From a virus, in the IMG/VR virus record IMGVR_UViG_3300013132_002633, positions 1-64,000 of that record: a DNA stretch of 64,000 nucleotides. One strand, 5' to 3'. Positions 3,629-57,861 of the stretch are shown here, one piece after another. The notes under the pieces were generated by a model. It searched no databases, was not told the DNA's origin, and saw only the letters and a list, made by a program, of their open reading frames with translations. A program made the translations under genes and the position numbers. How positions within the stretch are numbered: position 1 is the stretch's first letter; each line of letters opens with the position of its first letter.

Positions 3629-3681
3629 ATATTGACATAATATATATCTTGCACAATACTTATTCATGTAACTGTTACATC

Positions 3682-5622
3682 ATGAACAAAGATGAAATAT
3701 TAAATATTATAAACAACCACTGTGATTGTTATACTCAAATTATAAAGTCCAAACATCGTAATTTTTACGATGAAGTGTGCAACCGATATAGTGGAGATAA
3801 GTTTGGTGAAAAGTTGTACCGCTATTTATATAACGACGACGATAAGCTTGGATTGTGTAAAAATTGTGGGGAACGTACAAAATTCAAAAGTGTTATAATT
3901 GGATATACAACATATTGTTGTAAGCGGTGTAGCAACGAACACAATAGAAGCAAAATAATTGAATCTAGAAAATTAAGCACTACAAATAATAAACACAAAT
4001 ATTTTGCAATTAAAAATTGTGTCAACTGCAATAAACAATTTGAATCGTATAAATTTAGAAATCAGAGATATTGCAGTGTAGAATGTAGTGCTGTGTCAAC
4101 GGGTGGTGATATAAACAGAATAGCTAAAATAAAGAATACAAAATTTAAAAAATATGGAGATTCAAATTACGTTAACGTTAATAAAGCTAGAAAAACATGT
4201 TTAAGTCGATATGGTGTGGATAATATATTTAAATTTCGTGAGATAAAAAATTTAATCAAAGAGATTAATTTGCAAAAATATGGGGTCGAACACACATTTC
4301 AATCCGATGAAATAAAAGACAAAATAAAACAAACCAATTTATTTAAATACGGCGTTAATAATCCAAGTAAATCATATGAAGTAAAAGATAAAATAAAGAA
4401 GACTGTCAATGACAAATATGGTGTTGATAATATTTTTAAACATAAAGAGACGATGGAGAAGGTGTATGCTGAAAATATTAAAAAATATGGAAAAAAGATA
4501 CCTGTAAATGCGGATGAATTGAAGTCTTTAATGATCAAAAGGTTGAGAGAAACTTTATATGGAGTTGTGGTGGAAAGGTTAAACATCAAGAGTGAGTGCG
4601 TGCCGTTATTTAATATTGATGAATATATCAACACGGACAAACAAAACAAATATAAATTTCAGTGTAAGAAGTGTAATGACATATTTTTGGATCATATTGA
4701 CGGCGGACATTTACCTAGATGTTTAAAATGTAATCCGTACATTGCTGGATTTAGTTTACACGAAAAAGAAATTGTTGACTATATTAAATCTATAATTAAC
4801 GATGATGTTATTGAAAACAACAGAGAAGTATTGAATGGACTGGAATTGGATGTATATATACCCTCTAAAAATATTGCGATTGAATATGATGGATTATATT
4901 GGCATGGCGAAAAAGGCGGTGGTAAAAACAAACAATATCATCTAAACAAAACAGAATTATGTAAATTGAAAAATATACAATTAATTCATATATTTGAAAA
5001 TGAATGGACACATAACCGTGATGTCGTTAAATCAAAACTAAAACACATATTAAGTCAGAACTGTGAAACGCCTATATATGCTAGAAATTGTGAAATACGT
5101 GAATCGACGGATGTTGATGAATTTTTAAAACAAAATCATATACAAGGAAATTGTCCATCTCAAGTTAAATTAGGCGCCTATAATAACAACAATTTGGTGG
5201 CGGTCATGACATTTGGTAAAAGAAGAGTTGCACTTGGAACTAAATCTACTAATGCAAGTGAATACGAATTGTTACGATTCGCAACGTCACATCGTGTAAC
5301 AGGCATTGCTAGTAAATTATTACAATGTTTTATAAAAAAATATCATCCGACAAAGATTGTTACTTATGCTGACAGAAGATATAGTGTGGGGAATTTATAT
5401 AAAAAAATTGGGTTTGTTGAAGTAGGTGTAACACAGCCAAATTATTGGTATTTTATTGACGGTGGAAACAGATTATGGCACAGATACAACTTCAGAAAGG
5501 ATCAATTATCAAAAAAGATTGCTAGATTTGATGATAAGCTAACTGAGTGGGAAAACATGAAAAACAATGGATATGATAGAATATGGGATTGTGGAAATAT
5601 AAAATACGAATGGAATAAGTAA
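3682..5622 (+). CDS. Free-standing homing-endonuclease-like protein (Zn fingers, KYGVDN repeats, PD-(D/E)XK/Vsr-like nuclease, C-terminal GNAT-like domain)
   Basis: CxxC clusters, repeated (K/R)YGV(D/E)N, ELDVYIP..IAIEYDGLYWH..IFENEW, then NHIQG...YELLRFAT...TYADRRYS.GNLY; ATG 3682 preferred over TTG 3649. Confidence 0.75.
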   Translation: MNKDEILNIINNHCDCYTQIIKSKHRNFYDEVCNRYSGDKFGEKLYRYLYNDDDKLGLCKNCGERTKFKSVIIGYTTYCCKRCSNEHNRSKIIESRKLSTTNNKHKYFAIKNCVNCNKQFESYKFRNQRYCSVECSAVSTGGDINRIAKIKNTKFKKYGDSNYVNVNKARKTCLSRYGVDNIFKFREIKNLIKEINLQKYGVEHTFQSDEIKDKIKQTNLFKYGVNNPSKSYEVKDKIKKTVNDKYGVDNIFKHKETMEKVYAENIKKYGKKIPVNADELKSLMIKRLRETLYGVVVERLNIKSECVPLFNIDEYINTDKQNKYKFQCKKCNDIFLDHIDGGHLPRCLKCNPYIAGFSLHEKEIVDYIKSIINDDVIENNREVLNGLELDVYIPSKNIAIEYDGLYWHGEKGGGKNKQYHLNKTELCKLKNIQLIHIFENEWTHNRDVVKSKLKHILSQNCETPIYARNCEIRESTDVDEFLKQNHIQGNCPSQVKLGAYNNNNLVAVMTFGKRRVALGTKSTNASEYELLRFATSHRVTGIASKLLQCFIKKYHPTKIVTYADRRYSVGNLYKKIGFVEVGVTQPNYWYFIDGGNRLWHRYNFRKDQLSKKIARFDDKLTEWENMKNNGYDRIWDCGNIKYEWNK

Positions 5623-17668: not shown

Positions 17669-20035
17669 ATGAACTTTAAATCTGTATTAAATGATGTATG
17701 TTGTGACTCTAGAATCAAGAGCGGAATTTTAGATCTCAAAAACCCAGATCACGTATTTGTTTTGCAAGAATATCTGGAAAAGGTAGGCATTTCAATTGAT
17801 GAAATTGTCAATAAAACTGCTTCATTATTTGAAGCGGGTAGATTTCCAGAACGACAGGCATATAACAAAGATGGTATTTTAGTAACTTTTCCTAATAAAG
17901 AGTATCGTACCCGTGCTATAAATAAAGGTACTCATTTTGCAGAAAATCCTAAAAAATCACAGAGTAACATTTTTACAACTCAACCTGTAGGTGACGCATC
18001 GAATTCACAGAATAAATCTAATGACATTCAATCTGTCGATAGTGAATTAGAAAAAAGTGCTGATACGAGTGTAGATATAGAAAGAGAGAGAACTCCGAAA
18101 GAACGTGTAATCGATGCGAATGATGTTGATTATATTTTAACAGGAGAAAGTCCATTGGTTAATTACAGTGTAGACGAAGCAAAAAGATTTGGATTTTACA
18201 ATAAAGGATTAATTTGGTATGATGGCGACGGCAATTTAATCGGTGAACAGATATACGACGAGGTAAATAAAAAACCATTGATTAGGTTAAAAAAAGAAGC
18301 ATCTTTGGCACAAATAACCACGAAGGCTTTAAAGAAAATTGACATTTTGGATACGGAATTTGCAGAAATTCTACAAATATTAAAAACTGGATCCGTTTCT
18401 GGTAAAGACGATACGTTCAAGACTGATATATACGAAACTTTACCATTGTTGGTATTATACAACATAGAACTGTCAAACGCTACAAGTTTAGGTGGAGATT
18501 CAATAAAAAGAGCTGTTGATTTTATATCAAGAGTGGGAAATTTAAAGTCTAAATTAGAGGCTATTACTGATCAAGTTAAACGAAAGGAAAATCTTAATAT
18601 TTATGAATTGGTTGTAAACAGTTTATACGAGATCGGCGGAAAAAATGGTGTTTCTTTAAAAGATATTCTAACCAATAATCCATCTGATTTTATACATAAA
18701 TCAATTGACGAGTTTTATAAAATCGCAAAAAATTACGATGAAAAGTTCAATGGTAGTGAAAAAGGAAAGAAAAACACCGCCGATATTATAATAATATATG
18801 GTGGTACTAAAAACGATGTGTATGATGCGTTGAATTCTGGAAACATAGAAGATGTTACAAATGAATCGGTTGTTAAAATTAAAAATAAAAATATTTATTT
18901 TGCATTGGTGAGTTTGAAAGCAATGTCTGGAAGAGTCGGACGTGTATTCACTCAGCTTAGAAATTATTTAGATGTTGATTTAGAAATACAACCGTCATCT
19001 GAATATCAAAAAACATTAAAAGAAACTCGCCTGATACATGAGAGTTATTTTAACACGGTTAAAAATACATTTAATAATTTTATTGATAAATACAAAGAAA
19101 TATCTGATGTTGTAAAAGTAAAATATCGTGATTTGATAGATAATTTTTCTAAACTGACTGGTGGATTTATCGATAAAATACGAAACGATTTATTTACAAA
19201 ATTAAATCAAGAAACCTCTGTAATAGAAAAAAATTCATTTAAAGAATTTAAAAAGTTGGAAGATTCTATAAAAAATGAGATTGGTAATTTAAATGAAAAA
19301 AGCAACACTTCGTGCGGATCGGATTCGGTTGAATTAACAACATCTCTTAGAAAAAATCTGTCGGATTATCAAAAACTATTATCTGCTACAAATACAGATT
19401 CAGTATTAATTGAAAAATTAATAACAAATTCAAAAAATCCAACGGTAACAAAATATTTTAAATTTGAGATTGACACTGCCAATCTTGATAAGATTAAAAA
19501 TATAAAAAATGATATTAAATCATTATCAAAACGACTAGCAGATTCAGATATTAATTGTATTTCCAGAGAAGAATTATCTCCTGTATTGATGTATAGAAGT
19601 AATATACTAGCATTACAGTATATTGATTTAATAATGAATCGTATATTGCAGTACGTAAACTTATCGGATCCGGACAAAATTCAAAGTGAATTTTTAAAGC
19701 TAGCATCTGTTTTATCTACAGAGGCTATATTTGGAGGAAATGTAAGTTTGCCACTAATAAAATATACAGGCAATAAACTTGAAAGATTGGGTTATAAAAA
19801 TCAATACAAAATTAAAGTTCCCGATAAAATACCAGATTTAAAACTTGGAAAACTATCAGTCAAACTAGAACCTGATTTAAATGCTTATATGATTATAAAT
19901 CTTTATTTATTTTATGGCATTGAAACAAACGACGATGAAGTTACTCCTACATATGTTTTATACGAAATGAGAACTGAGAGTGGTAGTAGTTTTACATTTA
20001 AAGTTGAGGGAAATAAATTCGTAAATAAAATTTAA
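17669..20035 (+). CDS. Hypothetical protein (possible virion protein)
   Basis: 788-aa ORF preceded by TATTTATA motif. Confidence 0.6.
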   Translation: MNFKSVLNDVCCDSRIKSGILDLKNPDHVFVLQEYLEKVGISIDEIVNKTASLFEAGRFPERQAYNKDGILVTFPNKEYRTRAINKGTHFAENPKKSQSNIFTTQPVGDASNSQNKSNDIQSVDSELEKSADTSVDIERERTPKERVIDANDVDYILTGESPLVNYSVDEAKRFGFYNKGLIWYDGDGNLIGEQIYDEVNKKPLIRLKKEASLAQITTKALKKIDILDTEFAEILQILKTGSVSGKDDTFKTDIYETLPLLVLYNIELSNATSLGGDSIKRAVDFISRVGNLKSKLEAITDQVKRKENLNIYELVVNSLYEIGGKNGVSLKDILTNNPSDFIHKSIDEFYKIAKNYDEKFNGSEKGKKNTADIIIIYGGTKNDVYDALNSGNIEDVTNESVVKIKNKNIYFALVSLKAMSGRVGRVFTQLRNYLDVDLEIQPSSEYQKTLKETRLIHESYFNTVKNTFNNFIDKYKEISDVVKVKYRDLIDNFSKLTGGFIDKIRNDLFTKLNQETSVIEKNSFKEFKKLEDSIKNEIGNLNEKSNTSCGSDSVELTTSLRKNLSDYQKLLSATNTDSVLIEKLITNSKNPTVTKYFKFEIDTANLDKIKNIKNDIKSLSKRLADSDINCISREELSPVLMYRSNILALQYIDLIMNRILQYVNLSDPDKIQSEFLKLASVLSTEAIFGGNVSLPLIKYTGNKLERLGYKNQYKIKVPDKIPDLKLGKLSVKLEPDLNAYMIINLYLFYGIETNDDEVTPTYVLYEMRTESGSSFTFKVEGNKFVNKI

Positions 20036-20036
20036 T

Positions 20037-20432
20037 ATGATAGCTCAAAAACAATTACTATGTACATTTGCTAATAATTTAAATTATCAAACGTTGATAA
20101 CTGAAATAACAAATCAATACAATTTAACCGACCATAAGATTTTTATATTTGTAAATGAAAAAAATTTAAGAGAATTGTTTTTGACATTTAACGTAATTAA
20201 AAACGATCATATCAAAAAGTATAAAGGTACTATAAGTATTCATCGTAAAAAACAAACAAATACGCTTTATACGTTGAATGCTATGAACAAACTGATAGCC
20301 GATGAAAATGCGGGTGTTTTTGATAAAAATTTCCAATTAAACTGGAACTTGTATGCAGATTCGTTGATACTAACGAATGATGTGGGGGTTAAAATCGTGC
20401 CATTAAAATTATTTTCAATCGTTCCAACTTAA
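20037..20432 (+). CDS. Hypothetical protein
   Basis: 131 aa; QLLCTF, HRKKQTNTLYTLNAMN. Confidence 0.65.
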   Translation: MIAQKQLLCTFANNLNYQTLITEITNQYNLTDHKIFIFVNEKNLRELFLTFNVIKNDHIKKYKGTISIHRKKQTNTLYTLNAMNKLIADENAGVFDKNFQLNWNLYADSLILTNDVGVKIVPLKLFSIVPT

Positions 20433-20448
20433 TATATATTCAGTACAC

Positions 20449-20477
20449 TTGACTTCGTTTTATATATGGTATAAAGT
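20449..20477 (+). promoter_or_regulatory. Sigma70-type promoter of SSB gene
   Basis: TTGACT-17 bp-TAAAGT. Confidence 0.6.
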
Positions 20478-20561
20478 GATATCAAGTTAGTTATATTTCT
20501 TAACTTGGGTAAGTTAAGTACTTAACTAATTAACAAATAAACAATTAACTATTAAATAATT

Positions 20562-21395
20562 ATGGCATTAGATATTAGCAAGCTAAAGAGCCGTTTGAAC
20601 TCTCTTTCAAACACAAATCAAAAATCCAACCTTATCTGGAAGCCCAAGCCTGGCAAACAGGTAGTTCGTATTGTTCCTTATAAGTTTGTACCTGAAAACC
20701 CTTTTATTGAACTCAAGTTTCATTATAACTTGAACGGTAAGAGTTATCTATCTCCTGATAGTTTTGGTCGCCCCGATCCTATCGTTGAGTTTAGTAACCG
20801 TCTAAAAAAGACTGGTGATAAAGAAGACTGGAAGACTGGTCGTAAAATGGAGCCAAAGATGCGAACGTTCGCTCCCGTAATTGTACGTGGAGAAGAACAT
20901 GAAGGAGTAAAGTTTTGGGGTTTTGGTAAACAAGTTTATCAGGAACTATTGTCTATAATCAGTGATCCTGATTTTGGTGATATTACTGACTTAACTAGTG
21001 GGCGTGATATAGTTGTAGAGTTTAAAACGGGTGATGAATCTGGTAAGACATACCCAGAAACAAACATTCGTGTAAAACCAAATGTTAGTGTTGCAGTTGA
21101 TCCTAAAAATTCTCAATTGATTGATTCTCTTAAAAACCAAATTAATATTTTGGATTTGTTCCCAGAGTTGACATATGACGAATTGGAGGACGTTATGGAT
21201 AAGTGGTTGAATCCTGAAGTTTCAACAGAAACTACAGACGACACTTCTGTATCAACTTCAACTGATGACGATGATGTGCCGATTACATCAAATGTAAAAC
21301 CGGTTGACGTATCTCCATCGGCTAATAAAGCAAAAACCAATGTTCCCGCAAAAGACAATGTTGAACAAGCATTCGATGACTTGTTTAATTCTTAA
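20562..21395 (+). CDS. ssDNA-binding protein (T4 gp32-like)
   Basis: WKPKPGKQVVRIVP, GVKFWGFGKQVY, DITDLTSGRD; acidic tail AFDDLFNS. Confidence 0.85.
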   Translation: MALDISKLKSRLNSLSNTNQKSNLIWKPKPGKQVVRIVPYKFVPENPFIELKFHYNLNGKSYLSPDSFGRPDPIVEFSNRLKKTGDKEDWKTGRKMEPKMRTFAPVIVRGEEHEGVKFWGFGKQVYQELLSIISDPDFGDITDLTSGRDIVVEFKTGDESGKTYPETNIRVKPNVSVAVDPKNSQLIDSLKNQINILDLFPELTYDELEDVMDKWLNPEVSTETTDDTSVSTSTDDDDVPITSNVKPVDVSPSANKAKTNVPAKDNVEQAFDDLFNS

Positions 21396-21405
21396 ACAAT
21401 AAAAT

Positions 21406-21439
21406 AAAGCCGGTGGAGTTTTTATACCCCACCGGCTTT
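21406..21439 (+). terminator. Terminator-like hairpin between SSB and UvsX genes
   Basis: AAAGCCGGTGG ... CCACCGGCTTT. Confidence 0.7.
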
Positions 21440-21454
21440 CTAGTTATATACACT

Positions 21455-21748
21455 ATGGCAAAAAAATCTACAGTTTCAAAAGAATCTACACAACGAGATG
21501 AATTAATTGAGTTGTTGGCAAGTGAGCTTAATAAAGCAAATAAAGAAGGTGGCAAGATTGCATACTTTTTAGATGAACAAGAAAATCCAGCAGAAATTAG
21601 TGATTGGATTAGCACAGGATCATCTATATTGGATTTAGCAATCAGTAACCGTCCGCACGGTGGTCTTCCAGTTGGCAAGATGGTTGAATTCAACGGATTG
21701 GAAGGATGCGTAACCGAAGACACTATAATAAAAGTTATTATTGAATAA
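21455..21748 (+). CDS. uvsX: UvsX/RecA part 1: N-extein (84 aa) + 13-aa N-intein
   Basis: WISTGSSILDLAIS...GGLPVGKMVEFNGLEG then CVTEDTIIKVIIE-stop. Confidence 0.85.
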   Translation: MAKKSTVSKESTQRDELIELLASELNKANKEGGKIAYFLDEQENPAEISDWISTGSSILDLAISNRPHGGLPVGKMVEFNGLEGCVTEDTIIKVIIE

Positions 21749-22203
21749 AAATCTCCAATCCAACTATTAAAAGAAAAAAATCTGATGATAGATTTAGAAA
21801 ATTTGGAAAAATTAAAAAGAAATTTATGAATAGAATAGTAAAAGAAATAAAAGTTGGTGATGTTTTATCTCTCTTAGCAGAAGGTAAAAATATTAAAGTA
21901 TTGACTCGTAACAACGAGTATGTAAACATTACAAATTATGTAGATAAAGGATTATTAGATACATTTAAAGTTACATTAGATAATGGATTTACAATAAAGG
22001 TCTCTAGAGAACATAAATTTTTTACAAATGTTGGTTGGGTAGAACAGAGAAATTTAATTAAAGAAAATCACAAAATCTTTTGTGAAGATGGTGAATATCG
22101 TACAATACAAGATATAGAATATATTGGAAAACACAAAATTGTAGATATCACCGTTGATTCAGATGATCATTCGTATTTTGGAAATGGTATGCTTAATCAT
22201 AAT
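21707..22203 (+). mobile_element. Split intein UvsX-1 in Walker A (IntN 21707-21745, 13 aa; IntC 21826-22203, 126 aa)
   Basis: Cys1; block B VSREHKF; block F IVDITV; end YFGNGMLNHN|T; splicing restores GLEGTGKS. Confidence 0.8.
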
Positions 22204-22689
22204 ACAGGAAAATCATTGGTATCTGCACATGTTGTTGCTGATACTCAAAGAAAAGGTGGAGTTGCAGTTGTCATTGATACTGAAAACGCAGCTGCTCCTG
22301 AGTTCTGGAAAAGTTTGGGTGTAGATCTATCTAAGTTACTGTATGTTCAATGTGAAACCGTTGAAGATATTTTTGCTCAGATGGAAAAGATGATCGCAAT
22401 TGTTCGTAAGAGCAACAAAGATCGCATTCTTACAATCATTGTTGATTCTGTAGCAGCAGCATCAACTAAGGCAGAACTAGAAAGTGATCATGGTAAAGAT
22501 GGTTATGCAACTGGTAAGAGTATTATTATCAGCAAGGCGATGCGTAAGATTACTACCATGATTGGTCGTCAAAAGGTTCTTACTGTGTTTACCAATCAAC
22601 TTCGTCAAAATATAAATGCTATGGCATTTGGTGATAAATATTGTGTTGATCCGTATACAACAAAAATAAAAATTAGATATAAAATTTAA
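21826..22689 (+). CDS. uvsX: UvsX/RecA part 2: C-intein 1 + middle extein (146 aa) + 15-aa N-intein 2
   Basis: HN|TGKS, IDTENA, IIVDSVAA, FTNQLR, AFGDKY|CVDPYTTKIKIRYKI-stop. Confidence 0.9.
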   Translation: MNRIVKEIKVGDVLSLLAEGKNIKVLTRNNEYVNITNYVDKGLLDTFKVTLDNGFTIKVSREHKFFTNVGWVEQRNLIKENHKIFCEDGEYRTIQDIEYIGKHKIVDITVDSDDHSYFGNGMLNHNTGKSLVSAHVVADTQRKGGVAVVIDTENAAAPEFWKSLGVDLSKLLYVQCETVEDIFAQMEKMIAIVRKSNKDRILTIIVDSVAAASTKAELESDHGKDGYATGKSIIISKAMRKITTMIGRQKVLTVFTNQLRQNINAMAFGDKYCVDPYTTKIKIRYKI

Positions 22690-22697
22690 TTTTTCCT

Positions 22698-22741
22698 CCT
22701 CCTACTATACACTTATACTTAAATAAGTCCTTAGTAGGAGG
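22698..22741 (+). promoter_or_regulatory. RBS-sequestering hairpin upstream of endonuclease gene
   Basis: CCTCCTACTA/TAGTAGGAGG 10-bp stem plus inner ACTTAT/ATAAGT; AGGAGG ends 4 nt before ATG 22746. Confidence 0.8.
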
Positions 22742-22745
22742 TAAT

Positions 22746-23783
22746 ATGATTTTACTAGAATATTTAGATATAAATTTAACGTGGAAGAAAAATAAACCAA
22801 TTTTTAAATTTATAATTAAAACGGAAAAAAGAAAAACTAAAGAATTTCCTCTTAAATGTATTGTAAATAACAAAAGAATATCTAAAACAGGCAAAGAATA
22901 TTATATACATTATTTGGGAGAAATTGGAGAAGAAGTATATAACGAGAGAAAAAAGTTATATAGCATGTACAGTCTTATACCATTTTATATTAAAACGTAT
23001 AATAAAGATGTTGAGAAATTGAACGAATATCTTAAAATATTGAAAAGTAATAATGTGAACGGCATTAAAAAATTTTATTTGTCCGAAAAGGGAGCTGAAG
23101 CTAGAAAAATACAATCGGAATGGGGAATTAAACATTCAATGGAAATCTCATCTAGAAATAGAAAATTATGGAAAGAAGATGAGTATGTTAACAAAGTCAA
23201 ATCAAATCAAGATTATTCTTATGAAAATCATGGGAAGAAAATTTCCGATTTCTATAAAAATCAAAAAAATAAAGATTTCATAAAAAGTGTCATGAACTCC
23301 CCGAAGAGAATCGAAAAAATATCGTTATCATCTAAAAAAATGTGGGAACATGCAAAATCATTTAATAAAGAGATGTATTATAGAATGATAAATTCGCAAA
23401 AACATAAAAATTTTGAATTAAATGGATATAAACTTAATAATATCGAATATTTGGTAGGTAGTATATTAAACAATTTTTCTATAAATTGGGAATACGAAAA
23501 AATTTTTCAGTTTAAAACAACTTGTTATTTGCCCGATTTTTATGTAAGATCTAAAAATCTAATCATAGAATGTTATGGTGATTATTGGCACGCCAATCCT
23601 AAATATTTAAACGAAAACGATTTTACACATAAAAATAGATCTGTGAAAGATGTATGGGCATACGACTCTAGAAAAAAAGAAATTTTTGAAAACAATGAAT
23701 TTTCTTACTTATTTTTCTGGGAAAATGATATTCTAAATAACATAGATGGTATAAAAAAAACAATATATGAATACACAAGATAA
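22746..23783 (+). CDS. Vsr-like (DUF559-type) homing endonuclease
   Basis: PDFY...IIECYGDYWHANP...FFWENDI; between intein halves. Confidence 0.8.
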   Translation: MILLEYLDINLTWKKNKPIFKFIIKTEKRKTKEFPLKCIVNNKRISKTGKEYYIHYLGEIGEEVYNERKKLYSMYSLIPFYIKTYNKDVEKLNEYLKILKSNNVNGIKKFYLSEKGAEARKIQSEWGIKHSMEISSRNRKLWKEDEYVNKVKSNQDYSYENHGKKISDFYKNQKNKDFIKSVMNSPKRIEKISLSSKKMWEHAKSFNKEMYYRMINSQKHKNFELNGYKLNNIEYLVGSILNNFSINWEYEKIFQFKTTCYLPDFYVRSKNLIIECYGDYWHANPKYLNENDFTHKNRSVKDVWAYDSRKKEIFENNEFSYLFFWENDILNNIDGIKKTIYEYTR

Positions 23784-24609
23784 ATACATAGAAGAAGAAT
23801 TAACAATTGCCGAGTTTGCGGAAAGATTTTTAGGAATGAATAATTATTCATCTGAAAACGTTGAAGAAATAGATATATCGGATATGGATATAGAAATATA
23901 TGGTCGAGATTTAAAGTCCTCACAGGATTGCTATAATAAAATTAATAAATTTATAATCAAAACTCCATCGGAATATCATTACAGTGATGGTATACTGAAA
24001 GGCACAGATTTACATCGAATTATTGAAGATGGAGTTGAAATTCACTTGAAAGATCACAACGATTTCAAAAGGGTTAATGAACCAATAAAAGTTGTAGATT
24101 TCGATATTGAAAATACACACAATTATTATGCCAATGGTCGATTAAATCATAATACCGTAAGCGGTGGCAAGGCTTTGGCTTATCACTGTAGTGTTCGTGT
24201 TCGTTTGAACAACACTGGTAAGTTGAAAAAGGCAGAAGAAGTTATTGGCAACGAGTGTAAAGCAGTTGTTATCAAAAACAGAATGGGTCCGCCACAACGT
24301 CAAGCTAACTTTGAAATCTACTTTGACAGCGGTATTGCTGACTATAGTAGTTGGATCAAAGTATTGAAGGAGAATAACATTATCAAACAAGGTGGTGCGT
24401 ATTACTCTTACAGAAAAGAAGACGGTAGTGAATGGAAGTTCCAATCCAAAGACTTTGTATCTACCATGCAATCTGACAAGGTTTTAAAAGAAGAATTATA
24501 TCTTAAGATCTGTGATGCGGTTGTTATGAAATACAAAGATCCTAACAGTCAAATCGTTGAGGATGCTACTGTTGATACTGATGAAGAAACTGCTGGAAAC
24601 GACGAATAA
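23767..24609 (+). CDS. uvsX: UvsX/RecA part 3: C-intein 2 + C-extein (151 aa)
   Basis: HN|TVSGGKALAYHCSVRVRL...VIKNRMGPP...IKQGGAYY. Confidence 0.9.
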   Translation: MNTQDKYIEEELTIAEFAERFLGMNNYSSENVEEIDISDMDIEIYGRDLKSSQDCYNKINKFIIKTPSEYHYSDGILKGTDLHRIIEDGVEIHLKDHNDFKRVNEPIKVVDFDIENTHNYYANGRLNHNTVSGGKALAYHCSVRVRLNNTGKLKKAEEVIGNECKAVVIKNRMGPPQRQANFEIYFDSGIADYSSWIKVLKENNIIKQGGAYYSYRKEDGSEWKFQSKDFVSTMQSDKVLKEELYLKICDAVVMKYKDPNSQIVEDATVDTDEETAGNDE

Positions 24610-25682
24610 TGAATGAGTTAACACCAATCGAACGAAAGAAATTGTTCTCAATGTTCGAGAATATAGAAAGAGATTCCGTCATAACAGGACTTAAAAAATC
24701 GCTAAATAGTGATGTTCTGTTGGTTGACGGATTGTAGTTAAATACCTATATTCGTAGTTTCATGGCGATACCATCTTTAAATGACGATGGACTTCACACG
24801 GGTGGTATCGCCGGTTTTCTTAAAAGTGTAGGATACGCAATAAAATTATTGAGTCCTACCAGAGTTATAATTGTATTTGACGGAAAAGGTGGGTCTCAAA
24901 AAAGAAGAAAGATTTATCCAGACTACAAAAATGGACGTAGAACTGATATTAAATTAAACAGATCATATGATGATCTATCAAATTCGGTTATTGAAAAAGC
25001 CAATTTCAAAAAAGAATTGATACGTACTGTAAATTACCTCGACGTGTTGCCTGTTACTGTAATGGCTATTGATAATATCGAAGCAGATGATACGATTGCA
25101 TATCTAGCTAAACAAACATTCAAAGACAGTAAGGTTACAATTATGTCTACGGACAAAGATTTTTTACAGTTAGCGAGTGATCAAATAAATATTTGGAGTC
25201 CTGTAAAGAAAAAAATATTTGGTTGTAAAGAAATTATTGATGAATATGGAATAACATGTAAAAACTTCATATTTTACAGAATAATGGAAGGAGACGTAAG
25301 CGATAATATTACAGGTTTGGATGGCGTGGGATTAAAACGTGTTACACAAGCATTTCCTTTTTTGGGTGAAGATCCACAGGCGTGTTTACAACAAATATAT
25401 AATTATAGTGAAAATAATCGTAGCAGATATAAGATTTACGAGCGAGTATTAGACAATAAATTATTATTGGAACGTAATTATGAACTCATGCAATTACATA
25501 ATACACAAATTCAATCCTTTACTCAATTGAGAATTGAAGAGATTATAAATAAACCAGTTCCAAAAATTGATAAAATGAGTTTTAGTAAACTGATTACAGA
25601 AGATAAAATGTGGTCAAATATACCTAATTACATGTACTGGTTAAATGAGTGTTTTGGAAAATTAAATTCATTTGTTGAATAA
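24609..25682 (+). CDS. 5'-3' exonuclease / flap endonuclease (T4 RNase H-like) with in-frame TAG at 24735-24737
   Basis: ATG 24609 (TAATG overlap) in frame: VLLVDGL*LNTYIRSF; later VFDG, YKNGR, EADD, STDKDFLQL, GDVSDNITG. Confidence 0.85.
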
Positions 25683-25793
25683 TCAACAACTTCACATAAA
25701 ACTATAAGTTACAAATTGTAAAATGTTTACAACACACGTTGTATAGATTAGAATGCATAGACTATAGACTGAGTAGATAAAATAATATAAAAT

Positions 25794-26612
25794 ATGACTG
25801 AAAAAATTATAATAGATTCACTTCGTAAGTATGGATTGGACTTTCAAATAAAGTGCATAACGTGTCTGTTATCAGATCGTAGCTTTATGGAGAGAATTCA
25901 AGATATTGTTGAGGCTGAATTTTTTGAAAGTGATGCACAAAAATGGATTCTTAAAGAAAGTGTAAAATATTTTAATGAATATAAAGATCTTCCAACACTA
26001 ACTGTATTCAAGGTTAAAGTAGATACTGTTGAAAACGAGGTTCTTAAAAAATCTATTATAGATAGCCTAAAATTGGTTTATCAAAAGTTAAATGATAACG
26101 ATTTGAAATTTGTTAAAGAACAATTTTTGGAATTTTGTAAGAACCAAAAATTAAAGAATGCTATATTTGAAAGTGCTGATTTATTGGAAACAGGTCAATA
26201 TGACAAAATAAAGATGGTGGTTGATACCGCCATGAAAGCTGGTATGGAAAGAAATATTGGTCATGAATACGATGTAGAAATCGAAAAGCGTATGAGTATC
26301 ATGGCTCGTAACACAATAAAAACCAACTGGACTGAAATCGATACTATCATGGACGGTGGTCTTGGGCCAGGTGAACTTGGAATTGTTGTTGCGCCAGCAG
26401 GAATTGGCAAATGTATTGGTCCAAATACCGAAATTGAGATCGAATATCACGAATTTGGTATTGAAACATTATCAAGTTGCGGAAAATCATTTATAATGTG
26501 GATTAATCCGTTTGAAAAATATAAAATAGACGATGTTGAATTACTAGGTTGGCAAGTTGAAAATGTTTTTTATGAAATTGAAAAAATAAAACAAGAAAAA
26601 ACTAAAAATTAA
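25794..26612 (+). CDS. dnaB: gp41/DnaB helicase part 1: N-extein (206 aa) + 66-aa N-intein
   Basis: GGLGPGELGIVVAPAGIGK|CIGPNTEIEIEY. Confidence 0.88.
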   Translation: MTEKIIIDSLRKYGLDFQIKCITCLLSDRSFMERIQDIVEAEFFESDAQKWILKESVKYFNEYKDLPTLTVFKVKVDTVENEVLKKSIIDSLKLVYQKLNDNDLKFVKEQFLEFCKNQKLKNAIFESADLLETGQYDKIKMVVDTAMKAGMERNIGHEYDVEIEKRMSIMARNTIKTNWTEIDTIMDGGLGPGELGIVVAPAGIGKCIGPNTEIEIEYHEFGIETLSSCGKSFIMWINPFEKYKIDDVELLGWQVENVFYEIEKIKQEKTKN

Positions 26613-27798
26613 CGTTGACCGGCATCGGTAAGTATTTATAATAAATTTCATTTTTATGACATATGAGATCTATTTATTGACATGAGTATTAAAAAAGAAT
26701 TTTCAATATATCGATACCAATACTGGATGCAGAAATATGGTTTGACCGAAACCGACGCTAAAAATAAAGTCACATCAATTCAAAGAGAAAATGCGTTAAA
26801 ATCATCAAAGAAGTTCACGCCAGATCGATCTTATTTAAAAAAAGAATATTGGATTAAAAAGAAAGGATATACTGAGTCAGATGCTGTCAAAAAAATATCT
26901 GAGATTCAATCGGAGTATTCAAAAAAATCCAGTAGATTCACAGGCAAAATTAGAACAATTGAGAGCAAAATTAAAATTTCAAACTCATTAAAATCTAAAA
27001 TTGCCAAGATAGGCGGTGGCAATTGGGCAAAGCATTTTGGTCAATTTAATGGCAACTCTAAAATTGAAAAAGAATTTTATTTTTATATAAAAAATAATAT
27101 AAACACAAACGTTCAGGCAAATGTTCCTATATCAAATTATATAGTTGATGTTTTACATGAAACAAAAATAGTAGAATTTTATGGCGATTTTTGGCACGCA
27201 AATCCTAAATTTTATGAATGTGATGACCTTATAAAATCGTTTAGTATCAATAAAACTGCAAATGAAATATGGATCAGTGATAATCGTAGAATTGACATAT
27301 TACAAAAAATGGGGTATGATGTATTGATAATCTGGGAAAATGATTGGAAAAAAAACAAACAAGAGTGTATAGAAAAAATAAAAAAACATTATGAAATTAT
27401 TAATTAAAAATGTCCGTGAAAATATTAAAATAAAAGATTTATTTGATAGATTAAAAATTAAAGATGAAGAAAATGCGATGGAACAGTTAAAATTTCCATT
27501 AAAAGTAAATACACCATTTGGTTATAAAAAAATTGTGACAGCGTTTCGTACTGAAAAACAAAAAACAATAACTTCTTATTTTGGTAACAATAAAACATTA
27601 AAGACTTCTGGAAAACATAGATTAAAAGTAAACGGGAGTTGGAAATTCGTAGATGAAATAAACTCTGGAGAGCTAGTAGAAACTGAAGTTGGTACCACAA
27701 AATTAGTATCAAAAAAAGAAGGTCGAGACGAGATATTATATGATATATCGGTTGATGAAGTGCATTGTTATTATAGCAATGGCATTCTTTCCCATAAT
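26412..27798 (+). mobile_element. Split intein helicase-1 at Walker A (IntN 26412-26609; IntC 27391-27798, 136 aa)
   Basis: Cys1; TSGKHRL; LYDISV; YYSNGILSHN|S; splicing restores GIGKSW. Confidence 0.88.
26682..27407 (+). CDS. Vsr-like homing endonuclease
   Basis: VD...IVEFYGDFWHANP...IIWENDW. Confidence 0.8.
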   Translation: MSIKKEFSIYRYQYWMQKYGLTETDAKNKVTSIQRENALKSSKKFTPDRSYLKKEYWIKKKGYTESDAVKKISEIQSEYSKKSSRFTGKIRTIESKIKISNSLKSKIAKIGGGNWAKHFGQFNGNSKIEKEFYFYIKNNINTNVQANVPISNYIVDVLHETKIVEFYGDFWHANPKFYECDDLIKSFSINKTANEIWISDNRRIDILQKMGYDVLIIWENDWKKNKQECIEKIKKHYEIIN

Positions 27799-28503
27799 TC
27801 ATGGGTACTTGCCAAGTTGGGAGCTGAAGCAATGAAACAAGGTAAAAATGTTCTTCACTTCACACTAGAATTAAATGAAAACTATGTTGGATTACGATAT
27901 GATAGTTGTTTTACTGGAATTGATTTCCAAAATATCAGAAACAACATTGACATTGTAAAACAAAAGATTTCAGAAGTGCCTGGTAAACTTGTTATCAAGT
28001 ATTTTCCATTGAAGACGGTATCAGCTCATAGCTTAAAATCTCATACTGAAAGATTGGCTGTATTGGGTACAAAAATTGACATGATCGTTGTAGATTATGC
28101 AGATATTCTTCGTCCAGTACACAGTGATCGTAATAGCAACAGTTATAGTGAGGCTGGTGGTATTTACGAAGAGCTAAGAAGTATCGCGGGTGAACTTCAA
28201 ATTCCAATTTGGAGTGCAAGTCAAGCGAATAGGTGTCATTTGGTTGATGATCAAGTACTTACAAATCGAGGAACGATTAGACTAGGAGATTTGACTATTA
28301 ACGATTTGGTTTTGACTCACAAAGGACTTAAAAAAGTAACAAAAATTTTTCCAACCGAAACGCAGCCTGTTTATAAAATTAAATTAAGATCTGGTAAAGA
28401 GATTAATATATCTGCAAATCATAGAGTTCCAACCGCCGACGGCAGATTAAAATCATTAGAAACTGGGTTGTCTGTAGGCGACAAGTTATTTACAAAAAAA
28501 TAA
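27391..28503 (+). CDS. dnaB: Helicase part 2: C-intein 1 + middle extein (145 aa) + 89-aa N-intein 2
   Basis: HN|SWVL, HFTLEL, IVVDYADIL, WSASQANR|CHLVDDQV...SANHRV. Confidence 0.9.
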   Translation: MKLLIKNVRENIKIKDLFDRLKIKDEENAMEQLKFPLKVNTPFGYKKIVTAFRTEKQKTITSYFGNNKTLKTSGKHRLKVNGSWKFVDEINSGELVETEVGTTKLVSKKEGRDEILYDISVDEVHCYYSNGILSHNSWVLAKLGAEAMKQGKNVLHFTLELNENYVGLRYDSCFTGIDFQNIRNNIDIVKQKISEVPGKLVIKYFPLKTVSAHSLKSHTERLAVLGTKIDMIVVDYADILRPVHSDRNSNSYSEAGGIYEELRSIAGELQIPIWSASQANRCHLVDDQVLTNRGTIRLGDLTINDLVLTHKGLKKVTKIFPTETQPVYKIKLRSGKEINISANHRVPTADGRLKSLETGLSVGDKLFTKK

Positions 28504-29885
28504 TATTTTGTGATGCAGACCATATATTTAATATTATATGATTAACACTAAATTTAGAGATATTGTTCATTTAATGAACCAGAAGCCGTTCCGTGATTTT
28601 AAAAATGATTTAAGCGAATGCGTAATCAGTAACTTAAAAAAGGTCATATTAGAGTTTGATAAAAAATATATCTTGAATAACAAGAAAGAAGTCATACAGA
28701 ACATGATTAGATATAATGTTGATGGTGATTGGGTAGAGAGATTAAAAAATGGTGATAAATATAAAAAAGACGGATTTTCCATGGAAGCATTGATTGTGAA
28801 ATATGGCGAATCTGTTGCAAAGTTAATATCAGATGAAAGAAACGATAAAGTTGCGATTACCAAGGATAAATATATACGAAACCATAGTGAACATGAATGG
28901 GAAGAATTATGTAAAAAAAAGAGAAGTAATTTAGGACTTGATGGTTATATTAAAAAATATGGACATGAAGAAGGTTTAAAAAAATGGAACAATTACTTAA
29001 AAAAATGGAAAATTGGCATTGAAAAGAAAAAAGCTGATGGTTGGAAAAATGGTTTAACGATTGAGGAATATCAAACTAGATATGGAATAAAAGAAGGATA
29101 TGAACGTTGGAGAAAAAGAATAAATAGTAGAAAATATACTCTTTCTTTAGAAGGATATATTAATAAACACGGTGGTGAGTTGGGAAAAAAGTTGTGGGGT
29201 GAATATTGTAAATCAAATAATAAAACGTCGTTGGAGTCTTTTATCAAAAGATACGGTGAGAAGTTTGGAAAAGAAAAGTACGTTTTGATGCTAGAAAAGA
29301 TCTTTTGTTATTTAAAAAACCGAAGGTGTTATAGCATAATTTCCCAAGAATTATTTAAAAATGTAGCAGATAAATTGGAAAATAAAAATGATATAAAATA
29401 TGCAATACAAAATGGAGAGCAATATTTTTTTATTAATGAAAATTTTTGTAAAGGTATGTTTGTCGATTTTAAATATGGAAACATAATTATAGAATTTTAT
29501 GGAGATTTTTGGCATGCTAATCCATCTAAATACAAAGAAAACGATATAGTAAAACTTCCTAATAACAATAAATTGGCTAATAAAGTTTGGAGTGAAGATA
29601 AAGAAAAAATTGATTGGTTGGTAAAACGAGGATACAATGTAATGATTGTATGGGAAAGTGATTATTTGAAAAATAAAAATGAAGTGGTACAGAGTTGTTT
29701 AAATTTCATAAAACAGAACTATAAATAATATGACAGAAAAAATTACAAAAGAACACGATTTAAATCCTAATGAGTTTGAGTTAGATGAAATAGTCAACAT
29801 AGAGTGTATAGGTGATCATGAAACGGTTGACATTACTGTGGATGACACGCATATGTTTTTTGCAAATGGTGTATATACACACAAT
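28234..29885 (+). mobile_element. Split intein helicase-2, canonical split (IntN 28234-28500, 89 aa; IntC 29730-29885, 52 aa)
   Basis: Cys1, block B ISANHR; TVDITV; FFANGVYTHN|S. Confidence 0.9.
28538..29728 (+). CDS. Vsr-like homing endonuclease with N-terminal (K/R)YG-E-G repeats
   Basis: Repeated YIxKYGxEEGxKKW; VDF...IIEFYGDFWHANP...VWESD. Confidence 0.8.
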   Translation: MINTKFRDIVHLMNQKPFRDFKNDLSECVISNLKKVILEFDKKYILNNKKEVIQNMIRYNVDGDWVERLKNGDKYKKDGFSMEALIVKYGESVAKLISDERNDKVAITKDKYIRNHSEHEWEELCKKKRSNLGLDGYIKKYGHEEGLKKWNNYLKKWKIGIEKKKADGWKNGLTIEEYQTRYGIKEGYERWRKRINSRKYTLSLEGYINKHGGELGKKLWGEYCKSNNKTSLESFIKRYGEKFGKEKYVLMLEKIFCYLKNRRCYSIISQELFKNVADKLENKNDIKYAIQNGEQYFFINENFCKGMFVDFKYGNIIIEFYGDFWHANPSKYKENDIVKLPNNNKLANKVWSEDKEKIDWLVKRGYNVMIVWESDYLKNKNEVVQSCLNFIKQNYK

Positions 29886-30215
29886 TCAGCAGCAGACGAA
29901 GACATTGTTATGGCACATCACGCTGCCGACAGTTATCGTAAAATCATGACTGCCGATTTCGTAATGAGTGTGTCTCGCAAGACAAACGATAAAGTAAGTA
30001 ATACAGCACGATTCCACATTATTAAAAATCGTTTCGGACCAGATGGTTTGACATTCCCAAGCAAAATGAATGCTGGCTGTGGTCAGATTGAGATTTATGG
30101 TGAAAACAGTCGTGAAGGTCTGGCTGTGTTGAATGAAATGATGGACGGTGAGAACAATGTGAAAAAAGTCTTAAAAAATAAATGGAACGCACATAATGCT
30201 AATGACGATGAATAA
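29730..30215 (+). CDS. dnaB: Helicase part 3: C-intein 2 + C-extein (109 aa)
   Basis: HN|SAADED...ADSYRKIMTADFV...IIKNRFG. Confidence 0.9.
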   Translation: MTEKITKEHDLNPNEFELDEIVNIECIGDHETVDITVDDTHMFFANGVYTHNSAADEDIVMAHHAADSYRKIMTADFVMSVSRKTNDKVSNTARFHIIKNRFGPDGLTFPSKMNAGCGQIEIYGENSREGLAVLNEMMDGENNVKKVLKNKWNAHNANDDE

Positions 30216-30330
30216 TTCATAGTTAAATTTATTTAATTAAATAAAAATTTATGCATAAATTAATAAAAAATTATTGAACATAAGAGAACTAAATTTGATA
30301 GTTATTTTCTACCTAAAGAAAGATTATAAT

Positions 30331-32304
30331 ATGAGTGAAATTTTATCTAAAGAGTTTATTAAAAAATACGCAAAAAAACAACCGAATTGGGGATTCAACG
30401 GTTTAGGATATATTGTTTATAAAAGAACATATGCTAGACTAAAGGAAGATGGTAACACCGAAGAATGGCATGAAACAGTTGAAAGATGTATAAATGGCGC
30501 TCAGAAAATTGGAGCTAGATACACTAAAGATGAAGCAGAACGACTTTTTGATTATGTTTTTAATTTGAAATGTAATTTTGCAGGAAGAATGCTTTGGCAA
30601 CTAGGCACCAGTACGGTTGATAGATTTGGTGCTAATTCTTTGCTAAACTGTTGGTTTACAAGTATTAGAGAACCCAAAGCATTTTTGTTTCTTTTTGAAA
30701 ATCTAATGTTGGGTGGAGGTGTTGGATATAGCATCCGACGAGAAGATGTACATGAACTTCCTAGAATCAAAAAGGACGTTGTAGTAACGCATCTGCCAAC
30801 TAAAGATGCGGACTTTATTGTGCCTGACACTAGAGAAGGATGGGTAAATTTATTGTCAAATGTGTTAGATGCGTTTTATAAAACCGGTAAGTCTTTCACA
30901 TACAGTACAATTCTTATACGTGGTGCTGGAGAAAAAATAAATGGATTTGGTGGTAAAGCAAGTGGTCCCACCATCTTAGTAGACGGAATTGAAAAGATTA
31001 CAAAAATTTTCCAAAGTCGTGAATCAAAAAAACTAAGAAGTATCGATGTACTCGACATTTGTAATATTATTGGTAGTATCGTAGTTGCTGGAAATGTAAG
31101 AAGATCCGCTGAAATAGCGTTGGGTGATCCTGATGACGTTTTATATCTCAGAGCAAAAAATTGGAGCAGTGGTAACATACCAAATTGGCGTGCAATGAGT
31201 AACAACACTCTATACGTCGATGATTACAGTCATCTTATGGACGAGTTTTGGTCAAATGGATATGAGATAAATAACGAAACGGGATTTGCTAATGGAGAAC
31301 CTTATGGATTTTTCAATCTACCTCTCAGCCAAAAATATGGTAGATTAAAAGATGGTCCTCTTAAAGATTGTAATTTATATCCAACCGATGTTGACAATGT
31401 TATTGGTACAAATCCGTGCGGTGAGATAAGTTTAAGTGATTATGAATGTTGTAATTTAAGTGAATTATATTTAAATAATATAACATCGCAGGAAGAATTA
31501 AATGATTGTGCAAAATTGTTGTATAAAACACAAAAAGCAATTGCAGCACTTCCGTTTATTCACGATGAAACAAATAAAATTGTTCATAAAAACATGAGAC
31601 TTGGGTTGGGTGTCACTGGTATTTGTCAATCACTCGATAAGCTACCATGGTTGGATACATGTTATGTTGAACTTCGTAAGTTTGATAAATATTGGAGTAA
31701 AGAACGAGGGTGGTCTGAAAGTATTAAATTGACCACTATCAAACCATCAGGAACTTTAAGTTTATTAGGAGGTGCAACTCCCGGCGTACATCCGGCATAT
31801 AGTAAATACTATATGAGAACTGTCAGAATGAGTAGCGGCGATAAGTTAGTTCAAATCTGCAAAGATTTAGGATATCATACTGAATTTTTATTGAATTTTG
31901 ATGGCACCGAAAACCGTGATACAGTTGTTGTTTATTTTCCATGTGAAACTCCCGAAGGAGCAATACTAGCTGATGATATGAGTGTTAAAAAACAACTAGA
32001 CGTGGTAATGGAACTTCAGAAAATTTGGAGTGACAATGCCGTTAGTGTCACTGCTTATTATGACCCTCAAGAATTAAATATTCTGAAAGAATGGTTGACT
32101 GAAAATTATAAAAATAACATAAAGAGTGTTAGCTTTTTATTGAGACAAAAACACGGATTTAAACAGGCTCCGTATCAAGAAATTGATAAAGAATCATATT
32201 TAAAGGCAAAAGATAAAGTTAAACCTTTAACTAACCTAAATATTAACGGAGGTGATTTGTTACAAGGCATTGAATGTGAAGGTGGTGCTTGTCCGATTCG
32301 TTAA
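30331..32304 (+). CDS. nrdJ: Class II (adenosylcobalamin-dependent) ribonucleotide reductase
   Basis: YKRTYAR, LLNCWF, GNVRRSA, TNPCGE, TTIKPSGT, C-terminal CEGGACPIR; no NrdB nearby. Confidence 0.88.
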   Translation: MSEILSKEFIKKYAKKQPNWGFNGLGYIVYKRTYARLKEDGNTEEWHETVERCINGAQKIGARYTKDEAERLFDYVFNLKCNFAGRMLWQLGTSTVDRFGANSLLNCWFTSIREPKAFLFLFENLMLGGGVGYSIRREDVHELPRIKKDVVVTHLPTKDADFIVPDTREGWVNLLSNVLDAFYKTGKSFTYSTILIRGAGEKINGFGGKASGPTILVDGIEKITKIFQSRESKKLRSIDVLDICNIIGSIVVAGNVRRSAEIALGDPDDVLYLRAKNWSSGNIPNWRAMSNNTLYVDDYSHLMDEFWSNGYEINNETGFANGEPYGFFNLPLSQKYGRLKDGPLKDCNLYPTDVDNVIGTNPCGEISLSDYECCNLSELYLNNITSQEELNDCAKLLYKTQKAIAALPFIHDETNKIVHKNMRLGLGVTGICQSLDKLPWLDTCYVELRKFDKYWSKERGWSESIKLTTIKPSGTLSLLGGATPGVHPAYSKYYMRTVRMSSGDKLVQICKDLGYHTEFLLNFDGTENRDTVVVYFPCETPEGAILADDMSVKKQLDVVMELQKIWSDNAVSVTAYYDPQELNILKEWLTENYKNNIKSVSFLLRQKHGFKQAPYQEIDKESYLKAKDKVKPLTNLNINGGDLLQGIECEGGACPIR

Positions 32305-57211: not shown

Positions 57212-57212
57212 A

Positions 57213-57860: not shown

Positions 57861-57861
57861 G

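Follow-up and report, generated by a model that had tools for sequence, protein, structure and literature searches.

Anatomy of the locus

In this work, a stretch of viral DNA of 64,000 nucleotides was analyzed (positions 1 to 64,000 of the IMG/VR virus record IMGVR_UViG_3300013132_002633, one strand, 5' to 3'; hereafter the window), with a focus on a replicative helicase gene at 25794-30215 that appears to be interrupted by two split inteins. The record is linear and 76.5 kb long, its GC content is about 30%, and its completeness was estimated by CheckV at about 25%. The listing of open reading frames (ORFs) places five tightly packed ORFs on the plus strand at this locus, three of which join segments of the helicase (exteins) to N-terminal or C-terminal intein fragments (IntN and IntC).

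ORF1 (25794-26612, +, 272 aa) starts with the helicase N-extein of 206 aa (25794..26411), which ends in the first half of the Walker A motif (...APAGIGK) and is followed by a 66-aa tail with Cys as its first residue. This tail, IntN1, consists of a block-A strand comprising Cys1 and about 13 further residues (26412..26453, CIGPNTEIEIEYHE) and of a mini-domain of about 50 aa (26454..26609), for which four short strands and a helix are predicted and which contains the motifs LWINPF and GWQ. ORF2 (26682-27407, +, 241 aa) is a putative free-standing Vsr-like (EDxHD-type) homing endonuclease gene, here called HE1. ORF3 (27391-28503, +, 370 aa) begins with the 136 aa of IntC1 up to ...SNGILSHN (27391..27798), which include the strand preceding helix alpha-1, block B (TSGKH), block F (YDISV..VHCYY) and block G (SHN) in front of a +1 Ser. 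Next comes the middle extein of 145 aa (27799..28233), which runs from the Walker A Ser of SWVLAKLG to SASQANR. The remaining 89 aa, again with Cys first, are IntN2 (28234..28500), a canonical N-half in which block A reads CHLVDD and block B reads SANH. ORF4 (28538-29728, +, 396 aa) is a second putative free-standing Vsr-like homing endonuclease gene, HE2. ORF5 (29730-30215, +, 161 aa) opens with the 52 aa of IntC2 up to ...GVYTHN (29730..29885), a canonical C-half that contains block F and block G (THN) ahead of a +1 Ser, and the C-extein of 109 aa (29886..30212) runs from SAADEDIV to the stop codon. A preliminary description, made from the letters of this DNA, had proposed a three-piece helicase with one atypical and one canonical split intein. 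The five plus-strand ORFs with the ends it described were reproduced at the same coordinates, and the extein lengths computed from the ORF translations (206+145+109) give the spliced product of 460 aa that it had announced.

Extein continuity

Each extein was searched separately by tblastn against GenBank phages, and all three matched the same phage genes at adjoining coordinates. In Microcystis phage Mel-JY01, the N-extein matches 56840-57436, the middle extein 57437-57868, and the C-extein 57869-58111. In the uncultured phage LR756508, the corresponding matches are 247533-248132, 248133-248573, and 248583-248840, the last of which covers residues 4-89 of the query. The match of the N-extein to uninterrupted phage helicases stops exactly at residue 206. 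When the joined exteins were aligned by MAFFT with the helicases of Mel-JY01, LR756508, and Flavobacterium phage immuto, both junctions were gapless, and the Walker A (GxGKS) and SQxxRS motifs were re-formed at them; the Walker A sequence APAGIGKS is complete only once pieces 1 and 2 are joined. The contiguous alignment with intein-free gp41/DnaB-like helicases on which the preliminary description had staked its reading was thus obtained. Because the extein ends coincide at each junction, residue for residue, with uninterrupted homologues, the arrangement is far beyond chance. At the nucleotide level, a blastn search of the locus against GenBank phages gave no match.

The profile of PHROG 19 ('DnaB-like replicative helicase') is covered consecutively by the N-extein (161-366), the middle extein (367-507), and the C-extein (511-612). 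The middle extein matches the Pfam family DnaB_C (PF03796) with 40.7 bits at a cut-off of 27. Together with the PHROG 19 coverage and the re-formed Walker A motif, this match fits a superfamily 4 (SF4) DnaB/gp41-type helicase, with a DnaB_C ATPase domain and an N-terminal domain. A further alignment of the middle extein spans residues 203-358 of the 475-aa chain 8dtp and its relatives, labelled 'DnaB-like replicative helicase', a chain which we take to be T4 gp41. These sequence comparisons support the reading that the three ORFs encode parts of one gp41/DnaB-like helicase.

Apart from this helicase, nothing on the 76.5-kb record matches DnaB_C, and in a 297-kb relative with a completeness of 100%, the only DnaB_C match is likewise a fractured helicase gene. 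Based on these single matches, it is plausible that the phage depends on splicing. The preliminary description had gone further, to an essential hexamer whose every subunit requires double trans-splicing, and for this, too, plausible is the appropriate word.

Intein 2, a canonical split intein

In the gp41-1 intein structure 6QAZ, IntN2 matches residues 9-90 (whole-query E = 1.9e-11) and IntC2 residues 90-128; IntC2 also aligns to residues 104-142 of the NpuDnaB intein. All class 1 motifs are present, namely C1, SANH, VDITVDDTH, and THN|S. The net charge is +7 for IntN2 and -11 for IntC2. The junction reads ANR|SAA, and the supplement of Pinto et al. (2020) gives LNR|SAY for gp41-8. Within SQxNR, the insertion point follows (L/A)NR, and Ser-Ala occupies the positions from +1, as is the case for gp41-8-type insertions. 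The primer-derived ends of gp41-8 (CLSLDTM..., ...NGILTHN|SA) are nearer to those of two related contigs, L019 and L004 (CLSLQTV and CFSLQTV), than to the window sequence (CHLVDDQ). Judged by its sequence, intein 2 is a putative canonical split intein of known type at the gp41-8 insertion point. The canonical member of the proposed pair thus stands, with fragments of 89 and 52 aa and its catalytic residues kept.

Intein 1, a P-loop intein with an N-terminal break and a mini-domain

Intein 1 is inserted in the P-loop (GIGK|S), and its class 1 motifs are likewise present (C1, TSGKH, YDISV..VHCYY, SHN|S). The IntC1 profile, built from 12 alleles with 43 invariant columns, aligns to residues 6-128 of gp41-1, to residues 24-141 of VidaL, and to the CatC fragment of the engineered atypical Cat intein. 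From the extents of these alignments, IntC1 corresponds to nearly the whole HINT fold minus the first strand.

IntN1 measures 66 aa in the window and 63-74 aa across the 12 alleles, in which C1, G3, N5, T6, I8, Y12, E14, G16, I17, G24, W30, P33, G46, and W47 are invariant. For residues 17-58, the median ratio of nonsynonymous to synonymous substitution rates (dN/dS) is 0.29 and the corresponding ratio of proportions (pN/pS) is 0.44, at saturated synonymous sites; these values resemble those of the exteins, and the dN/dS of the mini-domain is about 0.2-0.3. When IntN1 was folded alone by AlphaFold2, the mean predicted local distance difference test (pLDDT) score was 90.8, with residues 1-14 unstructured and residues 15-65 predicted to form four strands (15-20, 26-31, 36-39, and 42-45) and a helix (46-65). 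A profile search of the mini-domain against the PDB returned chance-level matches (E >= 0.26), Foldseek against the PDB found nothing at E <= 0.001, the best VIA-align Z score among 48,161 chains was 3.2, and scores in the ESM Atlas were <= 0.85, which is the chance level. Because these sequence and fold searches were blank, no fold can be assigned to the mini-domain, and the blanks are no proof of a new fold.

A search with the IntN1 profile covered 1.84 billion representative proteins and gave only 20 matches. Several of them are N-pieces that end shortly after the GWQ motif. In four others (P0002, P0013, P0019, and P0009), helicases with lengths of 633-669 aa, the IntN1-like segment runs without a stop into an IntC1-like segment. 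The matches P0012 and P0015-P0017 were rejected as repeat-driven noise, in which many weak stretches are summed (P0012 and P0017 were inspected).

For the contiguous intein of P0002 (204 aa, L084:3616-4227), a structure was predicted from an alignment that included both split and contiguous alleles. The AlphaFold2 model has a pLDDT of 92.7 and a predicted template modelling score (pTM) of 0.86, its best Foldseek match is VidaL (6vgv), and VIA-align superimposes it on many inteins with Z scores of 19-20, a root-mean-square deviation of 1.5-2.2, and 123-143 of the 204 residues aligned. The HINT fold is accordingly predicted for this contiguous relative, with about 60 extra residues beyond it. 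The order of elements in the model is a first strand (7-20), three short strands and a helix (26-62), a loop (63-70), a strand (71-81), and helix alpha-1. The loop is the sole block of low confidence (pLDDT 65). The block-A stretch, which is coil in the model of IntN1 alone, forms the long strand 7-20 in this contiguous homologue. By sequence register, the window IntN1 ends at about residue 66 of the P0002 model and IntC1 begins at about residue 69, so the break of intein 1 falls in loop 63-70. According to the model, the break would lie behind an insert at the tip of the first beta-hairpin. The label 'atypical' given to intein 1 in the preliminary description holds insofar as the intein is atypically split and its catalytic residues are kept; it has to be refined in that IntN1 is a strand plus a mini-domain and not a short peptide.

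Endonuclease genes and their leaders

HE1 matches Pfam DUF559 with 23.1 bits (cut-off 20.6) as well as MTES_1575, belongs to PHROG 22677 with E = 1.6e-20, and aligns to E. coli Vsr (1vsr) across the FWH core with E = 0.04. HE2 matches the same PHROG with E = 3.9e-32, and its Pfam matches are weak (MTES_1575, and DUF559 with 14 bits, below the cut-off of 20.6). The two share 75 of 213 aligned residues. Together with a third endonuclease, encoded within the nearby uvsX gene, they fall into one PHROG (22677) at a mutual identity of about 31-35%, and the core E-F-Y-G-D-F-W-H (E-x-x-G-D-x-W-H) is found in all three. The Vsr-like family was first predicted in fractured genes (Dassa et al., 2009; PMC2677866) and was later named EDxHD after the characterization of I-Bth0305I (PMC3239194). 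By the family matches and the shared core, HE1 and HE2 qualify as predicted EDxHD/Vsr-like homing endonuclease genes.

The spacers in front of the endonuclease ORFs measure 69 nt for HE1 and 34 nt for HE2. The 3' end of HE1 overlaps the start of IntC1 by 17 nt, and the stop codon of HE2 lies 1 nt ahead of the ATG of IntC2. Upstream of HE1, a sigma-70-like promoter match (26615..26642, +, TTGACC-16-TATAAT, 11/12) adjoins the stop codon of ORF1. This candidate promoter was given little weight, since the exact match is not conserved among relatives and promoter-like sites in the region are not more frequent than in shuffled sequences. No clear Shine-Dalgarno sequence was found before the start codons of the ORFs in 21400-30300, where the leaders are A/T-rich. 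An A/T-rich motif is shared by window positions 26650-26681 and the leaders of the related loci L004, L006, L007, L011, L012, and L013; it consists of TTTTTATG and, after about 20-25 nt, of a TATTTAT-like element followed by the ATG of the HE1-type genes. The motif may be an expression signal carried by the cassette.

Relatives and allele states

A scan of IMG/VR with ORF3 as the query gave 291 related stretches, from which 80 loci were kept and the nine parts of the window locus were mapped by tblastn. Because the ORF3 query included intein sequence, this sample is biased and the following locus counts are not frequencies. The helicase is uninterrupted in 62 loci, with extein boundaries adjoining to the base. 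The site-1 intein alone, split and with an HE1-like gene, was found in 12 loci, and one further locus (L005) has it split without an endonuclease gene. The site-2 intein alone was found in one locus where the contig ends (L019). The complete nine-element order of the window recurs in L004, and both split inteins without intact endonuclease genes are present in L009. The three-piece layout is thus repeated in two independent, diverged contigs.

The nearest extein relatives of the window are without inteins; two of these uninterrupted loci, L021 and L022, are 94-97% identical to the window exteins. The nearest relatives of intein 1 are L005 and L011 (83-86% identical), with a helicase N-extein that is only 65-80% identical. 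This incongruence between inteins and exteins and the patchy distribution fit mobile elements.

In L009, the spacers between the intein halves (L009:5867-6003 and L009:7123-7370) encode recognizable endonuclease remnants, such as ...GYKTLVGWEWEWHND... and, with a stop codon in frame, ...VIIEFDGSY*H.... These spacers are snapshots of the loss of Vsr-like endonuclease genes after intein splitting. In L005, the 53-nt spacer (L005:5951-6003) matches L011:5204-5294 at the start of the 5' leader and at the IntC1-proximal end, which points to the clean removal of an endonuclease gene. In the 633-aa protein P0009, a contiguous intein 1 in the P-loop is followed by an IntN2-like half after SQANR; this helicase combines a cis-splicing intein with a split one in a two-piece gene. 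Related contigs therefore span the empty site, the contiguous intein, the endonuclease-broken intein, decayed remnants, and endonuclease-free split inteins. This range of allele states supports the gene-breaking model of split-intein origin.

Proposed mechanism and alternative explanations

We hypothesize that the helicase gene was invaded twice, broken by endonuclease genes, and is rejoined by two trans-splicing reactions into a 460-aa subunit, and we consider this explanation very probable. The inteins would have entered the gene within Walker A (GK|S) and SQxNR|S, both conserved motifs of the ATPase, and a free-standing Vsr-like (EDxHD-type) homing endonuclease gene would then have split each intein gene. 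Translation would yield three polypeptides, N-extein-IntN1, IntC1-middle extein-IntN2, and IntC2-C-extein, whose cognate halves would associate and undergo two independent class 1 trans-splicing reactions (Cys1, S-x-x-H, terminal HN, and +1 Ser). The joined 460-aa subunit could then form the hexamer. Cleavage of intein-less alleles by the endonucleases is the most likely means by which each cassette would spread. The net charges are complementary within the intein 1 pair (-6 for IntN1 and +6 for IntC1), as they are within the intein 2 pair, and the middle piece carries two positive halves (+6 for IntC1 and +7 for IntN2). Because of these like charges and the differing split positions, self-association or cyclization of the middle piece should be disfavoured.

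Several points weigh against this explanation. Splicing, endonuclease activity, and the timing of expression are deduced, and the fold of intein 1 is taken from the model of a contiguous relative and not from the two window fragments in complex. The explanation assigns no role to the mini-domain of IntN1. Moreover, a record that is only about 25% complete leaves room for a second helicase elsewhere in the genome.

The alternative that survives best, although we regard it as improbable, is that the three pieces assemble non-covalently and that the intein halves are mere docking clasps which form no peptide bond. A precedent is reported for the endonuclease-split NrdA of Aeromonas phage Aeh1 (Crona et al., 2011; PMC3045599), and peptide-bond formation at the present locus is inferred rather than observed. 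However, all catalytic residues (Cys1, S-x-x-H, the block F Asp/His, the terminal His-Asn, and the +1 Ser) are invariant in the 12 alleles. In addition, one break lies inside the Walker A loop and the other inside SQxNR, where an unspliced intein would probably disrupt the ATPase site.

It is still less probable that the helicase is a decaying pseudogene left by two endonuclease insertions, its function being taken over by the host DnaB or by another phage helicase. Homing endonuclease genes, being selfish elements, are able to damage genes, and the incompleteness of the record would accommodate such a replacement. On the other hand, all frames are intact and pN/pS is 0.27-0.44 over every piece, with saturated synonymous sites, and purifying selection acts on the exteins, on IntC1, and on both parts of IntN1. 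The layout also recurs where the exteins are only 58-67% identical to those of the window, and the fractured gene is the sole DnaB_C match in the complete 297-kb relative.

We see scarcely any likelihood of a joining at the level of RNA or translation, whether by an endonuclease-bearing group I intron or by ribosomal bypassing. EDxHD endonucleases do live in group I introns as well, I-Bth0305I being an example (PMC3239194), but no Rfam family, group I and II introns included, was matched at E <= 1 in 20000-31000, and the endonuclease genes are flanked by protein-coding intein halves under purifying selection. The RNA splicing that the preliminary description had named as an alternative thus finds no intron in this interval. 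An assembly or chimera artefact, conceivable for a metagenomic IMG/VR contig, deserves equally little credence, given that L004, from another sample, has the same nine-element order, more than a dozen further contigs carry single-site versions, and all junctions are in frame with matched intein motifs.

Comparison with known systems

The trans-spliced helicase proposed here belongs to the fractured-gene kind of system, which has been known since 2009, and no concept is overturned. In the fractured genes, IntN measures 88-105 aa and IntC 33-54 aa, a spacer of 27-51 nt precedes the endonuclease ORF, and free-standing GIY-YIG or Vsr-like endonucleases lie between the intein halves (Dassa et al., 2009; PMC2677866). 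The same work describes two-piece loci, among which only DnaE-1 has part of an additional intein, and reports that the N-half is positive and the C-half negative in gp41-1 and gp41-8. Both sites in the window follow this pattern, with an extein-IntN ORF ending in a stop, an endonuclease ORF, and an IntC-extein ORF on one strand; the spacer before the endonuclease is short, although that of HE1 (69 nt) is slightly above the reported range, and the IntC ORF overlaps or abuts the end of the endonuclease. Intein 2 resembles the gp41-8 locus in its junction, its fragment sizes, and its charge pattern with a positive N-half and a negative C-half. In contrast to the published loci (PMC2677866), the arrangement occurs twice in one gene, which gives three polypeptides with an IntC-extein-IntN middle piece, and the fragment sizes of intein 1 lie outside the ranges for both halves.

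Atypical split inteins have an IntN of about 15-35 aa, and their S1 split position lies before helix alpha-1 (PMC13014065). The IntN is 16 aa in VidaL, 15 aa in PolB16 OarG, and 25 aa in AceL-TerL; GOS-TerL belongs to the same group. Intein 1 is similar to this type in its N-terminal split, in the presence of blocks B, F, and G on IntC1, and in the location of the block-A strand on IntN, and its split is equivalent to the S1 position of VidaL and PolB16 (PMC13014065). It differs in the size of IntN1, which at 66 aa (63-74 aa in the 11 other alleles) exceeds 15-35 aa, in the added conserved mini-domain that is predicted to fold alone, and in the position of the break after this insert. The architecture of IntN1 is thus outside the published fragment ranges.

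The cellular DnaB inteins are located at site b (P-loop) and at sites a and c (motif H4), and replicative helicases with two inteins are known from Actinobacteria and Cyanobacteria (Novikova et al., 2016; PMC4760082). A P-loop intein and two inteins per helicase are features shared with the window. The cellular DnaB inteins, however, are contiguous and cis-splicing, whereas both inteins of the window are split and the second site is SQxNR|S instead of H4. The Aeh1 locus nrdA-a/mobE/nrdA-b (PMC3045599) is similar in that a free-standing homing endonuclease gene interrupts an essential phage gene of nucleotide or DNA metabolism, whose product is reassembled. Its halves reportedly join without inteins or a peptide bond, whereas the breaks in the window are flanked by complete catalytic intein halves.

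Our partial coverage of the literature yielded no description of a gene fractured twice into three trans-spliced pieces, with gp41-9 and native VidaL, whose inteins may stem from a T4-like helicase and UvsX, as possible precedents. Within the same coverage, no description was found of an IntN with a conserved mini-domain and such an intermediate architecture, nor of contiguous and split alleles of one intein side by side. Phage fractured-gene split inteins such as gp41-1, gp41-8, NrdJ-1, and VidaL are standard tools of protein engineering. In this respect, the locus offers a putative natural three-piece ligation by two mutually compatible split inteins, with a middle piece whose IntC-extein-IntN topology is what engineers build by hand. 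It also offers a new split architecture, in which a short splicing strand is combined with a predicted mini-domain and for which contiguous and split alleles are ready for comparison.

The uvsX gene, possible partner specificity and neighbouring genes

Upstream of the helicase, a UvsX/RecA-like gene (21413-24609) consists of three ORFs with two N-terminally split inteins, whose IntN pieces are CVTEDTIIKVIIE (13 aa) and CVDPYTTKIKIRYKI (15 aa). The first of these inteins is without an endonuclease gene and has a 77-nt spacer, and the second contains the gene for a 345-aa Vsr-like endonuclease. The exteins of 98+146+151 aa (from a GTG start) are contiguous in 70 relatives. The preliminary description had counted four split-intein pairs within 9 kb in the uvsX and helicase genes; all four in fact lie within 8.2 kb (21707-29885). 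Their IntC halves share at most about 35% identity over aligned cores, save for one pair, the first IntC of uvsX and the second of the helicase, in which 22 of 48 residues are identical.

Three of the four split inteins of the window are broken near the same N-terminal position. A tentative idea, which we consider possible but rather doubtful, is that the mini-domain of IntN1 is a dedicated docking module that gives the P-loop intein high affinity and partner specificity among four co-made split inteins. If so, it would be a natural orthogonality device, and natural split inteins would have, besides the canonical and the short-IntN types, a third architectural class intermediate between them. 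In the same case, the three-piece helicase would be a natural counterpart of engineered tandem trans-splicing, in which an atypically split intein is paired with a canonically split one (PMC11185735).

The nearest cultured relatives of the window phage infect Flavobacterium and Microcystis. A 657-aa ORF at 3649-5622 has full-length matches to PHROG 3339 ('homing endonuclease') and PHROG 559 ('HNH endonuclease') and is possibly another mobile nuclease. Between uvsX and the helicase, the FEN/5'-3' exonuclease gene (24609-25682) appears as a 42-aa ORF, a stop codon, and a 306-aa ORF (PHROG 107). Directly downstream of the helicase lies an uninterrupted gene for a class II ribonucleotide reductase (30274-32304, NrdJ-like, PHROG 367); NrdJ is a known target of fractured-gene inteins.

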